NCBI GenBank assembly: GCA_012513065.1
Contig: JAAZCX010000064.1
Coordinates: 4,046 to 68,045 of the forward strand
Source: Clostridiaceae bacterium
GTDB lineage: Bacteria > Bacillota > Clostridia > TANB77 > CAG-508
DNA: 64,000 bases
Direction: 5' to 3'
Under the pieces are notes generated by a model that saw only the letters and a list, made by a program, of their open reading frames with translations, did not search any database and was not told where the DNA came from. Made by a program: the position numbers and the translations under genes. Of the stretch, positions 44,057 to 45,838 are shown piece after piece (the stretch's first letter is position 1; every line of letters starts with the position of its first letter).

Positions 44057-45838
44057 ATGCTAAGAGTTGCGGCATATTGTAGGGTAAGTACAGAGAAAGA
44101 ACAGCAATTAGATTCCTTAGAAAAACAAAAAGAATTCTTTAGTGAATTTGCAAAACAAAATAACTATCAATTGGTATATATATATGCTGATGAAGGAATT
44201 ACAGGAAGACAAACTAAAAAAAGAGAACAATTTAATCAAATGATGAGAGATGCAAAAAAAGGAATGTTTGATTTAATTGCAGTTAAGGATATTACAAGAT
44301 TTGCTAGAAATACGGTTGATTTATTAGTAAATGTTAGAGAGCTTAAATCTATAAATGTTGAGGTTCAGTTTGTAAGTAATAGTTATAAAACATTAGGAAA
44401 TTCAGAATTTATATTAACTGTATATGGAGCAATTGCACAAGAAGAAAGTGCAGGTTTATCTAAAAAAGTTAAGTTTGGAAAAGATATTACTGCAAAGAAA
44501 GGAAGAGTACCAAATTTTGTTTTTGGTTATAACAAAATAGAAAATGAAAAATATACTCTTCAAATAAATGAAGAAGAAGCTAAAATTGTAAAAGAAATAT
44601 TTGATTTATATGTAAATAAACGATATGGAAATGCAAAAATTGCTAAAATATTAAATAACAGAGGATTACGAACTAAACGATCAGGTGCATTATATCAACC
44701 AGAAAATGTTGGTAGAATATTATCACATAAAATATACATAGGTGATGTAGAAAACAAGAAAAGTCAGGTAGTTGACTTTTTAACAGGGAGAAGAGAAAAA
44801 ATACCTGAAGAAGAACATATTATAGTACATAATGAAAGTTTAAGAATAATACCTGATGAATTATTTTATAAAGCCCAAGAGATTAAAGCAGAAAATTTAG
44901 TTAAAACAAGACAAAATTTTATAAAATCAAAAGCATCTAATAAATTTATATTTAGTACATTAATAAAATGTGAACATTGTGGATATTCATTTTTTAGAGA
45001 AGAACGACAATATAAGAATCATTTCATCAGATGGAAATGTTTAGGAAAGAAGAATTTAGGAAGAATTTTTTGTGATAATGATATGGCAATAGAAGAGGAA
45101 GAGTTAGTTGATGCAATAAAAAAATATTTTGAAGGGATAGTTTCTAATAAAAAAGATTTTATAAATAAAACAATAAATAAATATAACAGAATTATGCAAG
45201 AAAATAATAAGGATATAAAAACTGATAAGGAATTAAATAAAAACTTGGAAAAGTTAAAGGCTACAAAGAAAAAGTATATAGATATGTATGCAAGTGATAT
45301 GATTGATGATGAAGAATATAAGGAATTAACAGATAACATTAATATAAAAATAAAAGATATAAAAGCTCAAATGCAAATGTTAAAATTCACTATGGCTGAT
45401 GAAGAAACGTTGAATAAAGATATAAAAGATAAAATGCAAGAAATTGAAAATATACTTAATGGTAATGAATTTACAAATGAAGGATTGAAAAAAATAATAG
45501 ATGTAATAAATGTAAATAAAAATGGTAATGTAGAAATTATATTAAAAGGAATAACTAATTTCAGTTATGATAATGAAATAATAGTTAGAGACATAGTGGA
45601 AGAAAGTCAAAAATTGTCTAAAAAATCTGAAATTGTCGAATTGAGTGAGCAAATTGATAAAATCTCCACTTTGGACAATTCAGTACATAAAGATTTAAGT
45701 GAGAGAATCATTAAGATAAATCCTGCCTTATCAGCAGAAGTAAGATTAGTATTAGATGAAAATAAAGCAGAAAGACACATAAGGGGAGGTATGGCGACAA
45801 AATTAAAATATAGCCATATTAAAGAGAAAACAAATTAG
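44057..45838 (+). CDS. large serine recombinase; the ORF continues through the right junction into the spoIIID 3' segment
   Basis: Resolvase domain with catalytic Ser (AAYCRVSTEKEQ), recombinase domain, zinc ribbon (CEHCGYSF...WKCLG...FCDN) and a long coiled-coil. The last 50 residues are the SpoIIID C-terminus. Confidence 0.9.
   Translation: MLRVAAYCRVSTEKEQQLDSLEKQKEFFSEFAKQNNYQLVYIYADEGITGRQTKKREQFNQMMRDAKKGMFDLIAVKDITRFARNTVDLLVNVRELKSINVEVQFVSNSYKTLGNSEFILTVYGAIAQEESAGLSKKVKFGKDITAKKGRVPNFVFGYNKIENEKYTLQINEEEAKIVKEIFDLYVNKRYGNAKIAKILNNRGLRTKRSGALYQPENVGRILSHKIYIGDVENKKSQVVDFLTGRREKIPEEEHIIVHNESLRIIPDELFYKAQEIKAENLVKTRQNFIKSKASNKFIFSTLIKCEHCGYSFFREERQYKNHFIRWKCLGKKNLGRIFCDNDMAIEEEELVDAIKKYFEGIVSNKKDFINKTINKYNRIMQENNKDIKTDKELNKNLEKLKATKKKYIDMYASDMIDDEEYKELTDNINIKIKDIKAQMQMLKFTMADEETLNKDIKDKMQEIENILNGNEFTNEGLKKIIDVINVNKNGNVEIILKGITNFSYDNEIIVRDIVEESQKLSKKSEIVELSEQIDKISTLDNSVHKDLSERIIKINPALSAEVRLVLDENKAERHIRGGMATKLKYSHIKEKTN
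45659..45687. repeat. right junction (attR-like): element-side arm AAAATCTCCACTTTG plus core CAGTACA
   Basis: Arm at 45659..45673 and core at 45681..45687. See the left junction. Confidence 0.75.
45688..45838 (+). CDS. spoIIID: spoIIID 3' segment (basic C-terminal DNA-binding part)
   Basis: KDLSERIIKINPALSAEVRLVLDENKAERHIRGGMATKLKYSHIKEKTN compares with B. subtilis KDLTERLPEINPDLANEVKEILDYHKSIRGHLGGESTKLKYK (from memory). Confidence 0.85.

Follow-up and report, generated by a model that had tools for sequence, protein, structure and literature searches.

The DNA analysed here, referred to below as the window, is a 64,000-nucleotide (nt) stretch of contig JAAZCX010000064.1 from a Clostridiaceae bacterium (assembly GCA_012513065.1), in which the sporulation gene spoIIID is split at the codon for His39 by an 11,121-bp large-serine-recombinase (LSR) element. 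We found that the recombinase gene of this element has no stop codon of its own, crosses the junction with the host gene and, in the integrated state, ends in the C-terminal part of SpoIIID. That the enzyme carries this SpoIIID tail is most likely incidental and follows from the position of the attachment site (attP) inside the recombinase gene, because the sequence, the length and even the reading frame of the tail vary among relatives and because the swapped part lies beyond the last confidently folded strand. In the reciprocal product, the front half of spoIIID runs into an element-encoded tail that is conserved and, judged by its substitution pattern, under purifying selection across the family, and the resulting SpoIIID-tail chimera is probably made and used. 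The by-product reading for the enzyme, together with this reciprocal-tail account, is the explanation that we favour overall and consider probable.

A recombinase frame that crosses the attachment site

The recombinase open reading frame (ORF; 44057..45838, + strand, 593 amino acids, aa) runs over the crossover dinucleotide CA to the stop codon of spoIIID, as an earlier note on this DNA had claimed and as both the ORF list and the Pfam matches confirm. Its domains are those of an LSR, with matches to PF00239 (Resolvase, residues 4–150, E = 4.5e-30), PF07508 (Recombinase, residues 172–280) and PF13408 (Zn_ribbon_recom, residues 298–357) and, in the structural model, long helices at 347–468 between the strands of the zinc ribbon. 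Positions 34–80 of the SpoIIID profile match residues 541–587 of the same frame. The host-encoded part amounts to 49 residues past His544, or to the 50 residues that the note had given if the histidine is counted. The dinucleotide CA forms the first two bases of the spoIIID His39 codon (34565–34567), and the codon for His544 of the recombinase (45686–45688) is in phase with it. The two halves of spoIIID are in the same phase as well, their spacing of 11,121 bases being 3 × 3,707, and the claim that both frames are open in the same codon phase at the two junctions therefore holds.

When the ends were joined in silico, the recombinase became a protein of 566 aa (544 + 22), which bears out the proposal that excision exchanges the C-terminal tails of both proteins; the frame of the recombinase spans the crossover, and its C-terminus consists of 49 host residues in the integrated form and of 22 element residues in the free form. 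Judged against the intact spoIIID genes of four same-genus genomes, the halves join without loss or gain. The 3' part, which is 80% identical to an intact relative (tblastn), is read twice, as residues 545–593 of the recombinase and, after excision, as SpoIIID. The arms of attP mirror each other around CA in two divergent attP types, from the window and from its relatives, and CA was taken as the crossover dinucleotide because the symmetry of the arms centres on it in both types. Imperfect inverted arms, a central dinucleotide and a shared core of 7 bp are the features of an LSR attachment site. By its sequence the element is a skin-like intervening element, lying within a mother-cell sporulation gene whose frame precise removal would restore; the halves are in phase, and their joined form is present in one contig of run X8.

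The layout is as follows. The site attP lies within the 3' end of the recombinase gene, which is therefore left without a stop codon of its own; the frame passes the left arm of attP and the crossover CA to end in whatever DNA follows on the right. In the integrated state of the window lineage, where the frames of the recombinase and of spoIIID coincide, this puts 49 SpoIIID residues on the enzyme; in most relatives, where the frame differs, it adds 0–23 unrelated residues. After excision, which presumably occurs in the mother cell, the window enzyme would end in the element's own left end (22 residues). The swap on the recombinase is most likely a tolerated by-product of a compact layout, while the reciprocal product joins residues 1–39 of SpoIIID, with the whole helix-turn-helix, to a conserved tail of the element.

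Both DNA forms have natural counterparts. Protein P0157 ends in the SpoIIID tail, and P0203, which is 73% identical to the window enzyme up to the crossover, goes on into an element tail of 40 aa in place of SpoIIID; the latter comes from a single contig of 2,650 nt, whose source could be a circular form or a tandem array. A contig of depth 14 in run X8 skips 11,121 bases, with 34559 linked to 45681 across seven shared bases. The shared bases are the core CAGTACA and the joint is an empty or restored site, which may represent the product of excision or a strain without the element. This joint was not seen among the contigs of the other three of four runs, and the joints listed for the contigs of the four runs did not include that of a circle (attP). 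When plasmid and phage records were searched for a free copy, only distant recombinases came up. An unverified 6.4-kb 'phage' record was rejected as such a copy, because it is a piece of chromosome in which the layout is likewise out of frame.

Read-through is general among the relatives. These were sought with one genome per species, which gave 80 loci, three of them (L094, L097 and L099) on the same contigs as same-genus relatives. All five same-genus relatives with a readable right junction have a recombinase that crosses the core without a stop of its own. The 3' half of spoIIID directly follows the recombinase in 75 of the 80 loci, and the recombinase frame crosses CA in every one of the 75. 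At the remaining five loci the recombinase is cut at a contig end (L067 and L077), continues into unrelated DNA (L047), reads into the decayed left end of another element (L074) or has its own stop 20 codons ahead of the usual core, followed by 157 bases that hold no junction (L083). The earlier note had named stop codons upstream of the junction in related elements as an observation that would refute a regulatory role; L083, which lacks the junction, is the only one of 78 evaluable genes to have one.

The frame in which the host DNA is read differs among these loci. Only two of the 75 (L029 and L030) use the spoIIID frame, which we call type A, and end at or near the spoIIID stop; they are the closest relatives of the window, with recombinases 75% and 72% identical to its own. 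The other 73 loci (type B), whose recombinases are about 47% identical to the window enzyme, use a frame one base earlier. The number of residues that they add after the crossover codon is 0 at 37 loci, 3 at six, 4 at 16, 8, 12, 15 and 16 at two loci each, 18 at four, and 22 and 23 at one locus each. The 37 loci add none because the spoIIID sequence CAT AAA, read in this frame, gives TAA right after the crossover codon. As predicted from its sequence, the excised type B recombinase would gain eight residues. Over the last 16 codons of 71 type B loci, variation at the three codon positions is 3.2, 2.5 and 2.9, which is what would be expected if the codons of the attP arm were constrained as DNA and not as peptide. 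Proteins P0197 and P0205 have N-terminal sequences resembling type B, yet in them the same arm DNA is read in the spoIIID frame and they end in a SpoIIID tail, so that the arm has no fixed peptide.

An AlphaFold2 model of the window recombinase, with a mean predicted local distance difference test (pLDDT) score of 62, has its last strands at residues 481–486 and 492–496. The pLDDT falls to 29–46 over about residues 500–550 and is 39–59 over the SpoIIID-derived tail, which is modelled as a helical appendage. The exchanged part begins about 48 residues past the last confidently folded strand.

Two further observations concern the history of the type B elements. One of them (L087, 4071–4238) has inserted at the same His codon in a SpoIIID-like gene that is much more divergent (43% identical), and the family may therefore use paralogous targets as well. 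Across species, again with one genome for each, type B recombinases are 88–94% identical and the flanking halves of spoIIID differ more, which suggests a recent spread of these elements between species.

The element-encoded tail on the 5' half of spoIIID

The 5' half of spoIIID belongs to a 61-aa ORF (34451..34636, + strand) that matches positions 4–42 of the SpoIIID profile (Pfam) and ends in the element. The earlier note had placed its stop at 34636, correctly, and had given the element-encoded part 23 residues; the number is 22, or 23 with the histidine. In the relatives, residues 1–39 of SpoIIID likewise enter a conserved element-encoded tail. We surveyed 40 distinct left junctions, of which 33 could be read to a stop and seven were cut by contig ends. 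The tail is full-length (35, 40 or 47 aa) at 31 of the 33 readable junctions: 26 have 40 aa (one of them, L127, with a different last five residues), three have 47 aa, and two, those of the type A relatives, have 35 aa. The shorter tails are that of the window (22 aa) and that of L142 (26 aa).

The ratio of nonsynonymous to synonymous substitution rates (dN/dS) of the tail is 0.148 for seven sequences (20 pairs) and 0.226 for 19 distinct sequences (169 pairs); at the same loci it is 0.087–0.15 for the host part of spoIIID and about 0.05 for the recombinase. Variation by codon position (3.7, 3.0 and 7.2) is concentrated at third positions. The stop of the tail is fixed, and the 60 nt beyond it are 46% alike, compared with 81.5% within the tail. 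The other two sense frames contain stops. The assignment of the coding strand rests on the lower sense dN/dS, on the constant position of the stop and on the drop in similarity beyond it. The earlier note's remark on the truncated SpoIIID fragment is, on these substitution patterns, the stronger lead.

Database searches connect the tail with SpoIIID. A search with the tail alone gave 1070 protein clusters of 43–139 aa, and nearly all of the 120 that were listed have a SpoIIID domain. A profile of the tail, run against 1.84 billion representatives, matched 33 proteins, all of 34–121 aa; none of the 33 is a recombinase, and clustering at 50% could hide such forms. About 33 of 151 genomes in a family-wide draw, from some 20 genera, carry the chimera, with ten matches cut by contig ends. 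An atlas search with the tail gave no usable match. In a model of the chimera, which is of low confidence (mean pLDDT 60) and serves as a hint only, three helices, the third of which continues through the junction, are followed by strands at 58–64 and 73–78. From about residue 20 on, the window tail differs from those of the two type A relatives, and it ends at residue 22, with the loss of the second strand as a consequence. The conserved tail on the front half of SpoIIID may matter, and we regard it as the feature worth experiment. It raises a new question about sporulation gene switches, in that the seemingly broken 5' fragment may function as a protein and not be debris.

The tail also occurs away from SpoIIID. 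Five proteins (P0123, P0128, P0130, P0135 and P0145) carry it on other N-terminal fragments, for example a kinase-like one, several with His at the junction; these look like off-target insertions. At L074 (4040–4230), a single case, the recombinase enters the left-end tail of the other element, which holds stops, as would be expected if tails decay when they are not attached to spoIIID. Beside the left junction of the window lies a HIT-family gene (34722–35273) whose profile matches begin at positions 23–40 and which has stops just upstream; it looks truncated at the 5' end, perhaps through the same event that shortened the tail, and both shortenings would fit a deletion at the left end of the element.

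What the exchanged tails may mean

The earlier note had left it open whether the swap is incidental or regulatory. For the recombinase, the comparison favours the former, given the in-frame fusion at only two of 75 loci, the variation of the arm and the structural model. We think it unlikely that the SpoIIID tail is functional on the integrated form of the enzyme, as a DNA-binding or stability element that would make its activity or direction depend on the integration state, although several facts speak for it. The window and both of its closest relatives at species level retain the in-frame fusion, and among 55 protein clusters found with residues 480–593 of the window enzyme, 54 are recombinase-SpoIIID fusions (408–600 aa), divergent lineages included, the remaining one being P0203. 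There are also precedents for an attP inside a gene altering the behaviour of the protein, in the Mx8 integrase (PMC6070905) and the BPs repressor (PMC4557955), and C-terminal extensions of LSRs have been proposed to block the site of the directionality factor (PMC12286644). At 73 of the 75 related loci, however, the fusion is absent although the same spoIIID codon is used and both halves are intact, and at 37 of these a stop directly follows the crossover codon; the SpoIIID tail is spoIIID coding sequence and is thus conserved for the sake of SpoIIID itself; and residues 545–593 of the recombinase show no confident packing in the model. A number of points nevertheless weigh against the by-product reading and the account of the chimera joined to it. 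No stop precedes the core in any recombinase whose junction is readable, and read-through could matter; this point is weak, since only some 5–20 codons can vary freely between the conserved ITNF motif and the arm with its constraint on DNA, and for that reason we dropped the absence of premature stops as proof of selection for read-through. The in-frame fusion persists in the 54 clusters, whose identity in the C-terminal region goes down to 42%, and selection for the fusion would likewise give this. The recombinase model is modest, and its low confidence is no proof that the tail is dispensable. The empty-site contig was found in one run of four and possibly comes from a strain that never carried the element. 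Finally, the antisense frame of the chimera tail, wobble-matched to the sense frame, is open in all eight copies tested, with a dN/dS of 0.25.

This last point bears on the possibility, to us an improbable one, that the constraint on the chimera tail acts not on its peptide but on DNA, such as accessory sites of the recombinase or a promoter of the first cargo gene, or on the antisense frame. The first nine codons of the tail do form an attP arm; outside the arm, however, variation over codons 10–40 is again concentrated at third positions (2.95, 2.42 and 6.11). The antisense dN/dS exceeds that of the sense frame (0.148), and the antisense frame has no ATG (ATG alone was checked). The fixed stop and the similarity that disappears directly past it argue for a peptide too, as do the type A tails, which keep the same strand-turn-strand pattern in different DNA, and the internal tandem-like junction of L074, where a tail not joined to spoIIID carries stops (one case). 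If the peptide is what is conserved, it might act as a portable control module of the element that is fused to SpoIIID in the integrated state and helps to trigger or direct excision, a reading that we hold to be improbable. The chimera would then be expressed from the spoIIID promoter, in the mother cell once spoIIID switches on, and would act as a partner of the recombinase resembling a directionality factor or stand in as an activator of the recombinase genes. Excision would destroy the chimeric gene and create an intact spoIIID, giving a self-timing, irreversible switch. In lineages that use the spoIIID frame, the free enzyme would carry the module in cis (P0203), and the truncated module of the window would predict impaired control. 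Very improbable, in our view, is a dead insertion in which spoIIID is a pseudogene, a SpoIIID-like paralogue has taken over and the read-through frames are relics. Although a full-length SpoIIID-family gene lies on another contig of the same genome, the window tail is shortened and two cargo genes look damaged, both halves of spoIIID are intact and in phase, its host part has a dN/dS of 0.087–0.15 across split genes, the promoter-like leader matches that of intact genes and the recombinase retains all its domains; moreover, the paralogue is also present in genomes with intact spoIIID, and a precise empty-site joint exists.

Related systems and neighbouring features

The layout is of a known kind, and what is new is its occurrence in the serine recombinase of a sporulation-gene element. 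The attP of myxophage Mx8 lies inside the coding sequence of its integrase (IntP/IntX), where integration produces a recombinant gene with a new 3' end and does not inactivate the enzyme (PMC6070905, PMC4383910). Mx8 and the SSV-type integrases thus resemble the window in having the attachment site inside the integrase gene; they are, however, tyrosine integrases acting at tRNA genes, whereas the window has an LSR at a protein-coding sporulation gene, joined in frame. The change in Mx8 alters specificity, whereas in the window family the exchanged part varies freely among relatives. In mycobacteriophage BPs, attP lies inside the repressor gene 33, and the C-terminus changed by integration decides the stability of the protein (PMC4557955). 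The likeness to the window lies in a C-terminus encoded across attP that changes on integration; the BPs gene encodes a repressor with a degradation tag in its viral form, whereas the gene that spans attP in the window is that of the recombinase, and no repressor spans it.

Intervening elements of sporulation genes include skin (sigK), SPbeta (spsM), gin (gerE) and skinCd (PMC5595907, PMC4191935, PMC5025042, PMC6957869). Like the window element, they have an LSR gene at the edge, beside the 3' fragment of a mother-cell sporulation gene. When these elements are removed precisely at a short core, the gene becomes whole again; in the window the target is spoIIID, and excision of the element is a prediction from the sequence. 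A skin-like element that interrupts spoIIID of Ruminiclostridium cellulolyticum is mentioned in one sentence by Galperin and colleagues (bioRxiv 10.1101/2022.02.25.481979). In the open-access full text searched, we found no account of a sporulation element whose serine recombinase frame spans attP, and none of a split gene with a conserved tail on its 5' fragment. In the SCCmec-type LSRs, an extension beyond the zinc-ribbon domain has been proposed to occupy the site of the directionality factor (PMC12286644). Its extra C-terminal strands may be compared with the tail of the present family, which is predicted, with low confidence, to form two strands; the SCCmec-type extension is a fixed part of the enzyme, whereas the tail is swapped by recombination.

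The genome that carries the window was assembled from a metagenome (1.27 Mb in 77 contigs), and the element belongs to a large family in small-genome Clostridia of gut, rumen and manure, the named relatives being uncultured members of that class from these habitats, such as Clostridium sp. CAG:343. The read-through explains an odd gene call, a recombinase with a SpoIIID domain; 54 such protein clusters are already public, and annotation pipelines will add more. LSRs, like some tyrosine integrases, can hold attP inside their own gene, which matters in mining for genome engineering, where the 'full-length' enzyme of an integrated copy has host sequence at its end.

The features of the element and of its surroundings are listed below.

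Features of the spoIIID region in the window (positions are those of the window)
Feature	Position	Strand	Remarks
Promoter-like stretch and palindromic leader upstream of spoIIID	34387..34432	+	Kept in split and intact genes
spoIIID 5' part (codons 1–38 and CA of His39; helix-turn-helix)	34451..34566	+	Pfam SpoIIID 4–42; aligns with same-genus intact genes
Left core copy CAGTACA	34560..34566	.	7 bp; crossover CA at 34565–34566
Inserted element	34567..45687	.	Base after left CA through right CA; 11,121 bp
Left terminal inverted repeat (right half-site of attP)	34568..34599	.	32 nt, 81% complementary to 45653–45684
Element-encoded tail on spoIIID 5' half	34568..34636	+	22 codons and stop (34634–34636); shorter than in relatives
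142-aa protein upstream of recombinase	43296..43724	+	Homologues upstream of recombinase in 16/80 loci
42-aa ORF just upstream of recombinase	43781..43909	+	Homologues in 43/80 loci
Element-encoded part of LSR (residues 1–543 and CA of His544)	44057..45687	+	Pfam
Right terminal inverted repeat (left half-site of attP)	45653..45684	.	Inside recombinase frame
Right core copy CAGTACA	45681..45687	.	Crossover CA at 45686–45687
spoIIID 3' part (third base of His, codons 40–88, stop)	45688..45838	+	Pfam SpoIIID positions 34–80
Hairpin and T run, terminator-like, past spoIIID stop	45850..45874	+	Read directly from sequence

Upstream of spoIIID, a GAATACA(A/C)T stretch and a flanking GAATAC...GTATTC palindrome are kept in split and intact genes alike at 15 loci. 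The stretch appears to resemble a -10 box of the sigma-E type. The palindrome (GAATAC, 12 bases, GTATTC; 34406–34432 in the window and at 14 other loci) follows the promoter-like box, ahead of the ribosome-binding site, and could be an operator or a leader hairpin. The hairpin past the spoIIID stop was not listed by the sequence scan because its stem has fewer than three G-C pairs.

Neither the 142-aa nor the 42-aa protein upstream of the recombinase has a Pfam or PHROGs match; the latter is, by its position and size, a candidate directionality factor. A TTGACA-17-TAACAT site at 43954–43982 was discounted as a promoter, the scan having given 21 such sites where 21.9 were expected by chance. 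No sequence differences were seen among the four runs at the tail site of the window.

The SpoIIID-family paralogue in the same genome (L001; G000:C63:23970-24206) is full-length, scores 92 bits against Pfam and is 47% identical to an intact same-genus SpoIIID; similar paralogues occur in several same-genus genomes, whether spoIIID is split or not. Within the element, a class-V aminotransferase gene (cysteine desulfurase-like, 37564–38717) is seemingly broken into a 48-aa N-terminal ORF (37564..37710) and an ORF (37998..38717) that matches profile positions 147–370 only. The cargo at 39393–42435, which encodes a GtrA-like protein, a family-2 glycosyltransferase and a 532-aa membrane protein with no family match, resembles a glycosylation cassette, and the cargo of the relatives is quite different from that of the window.

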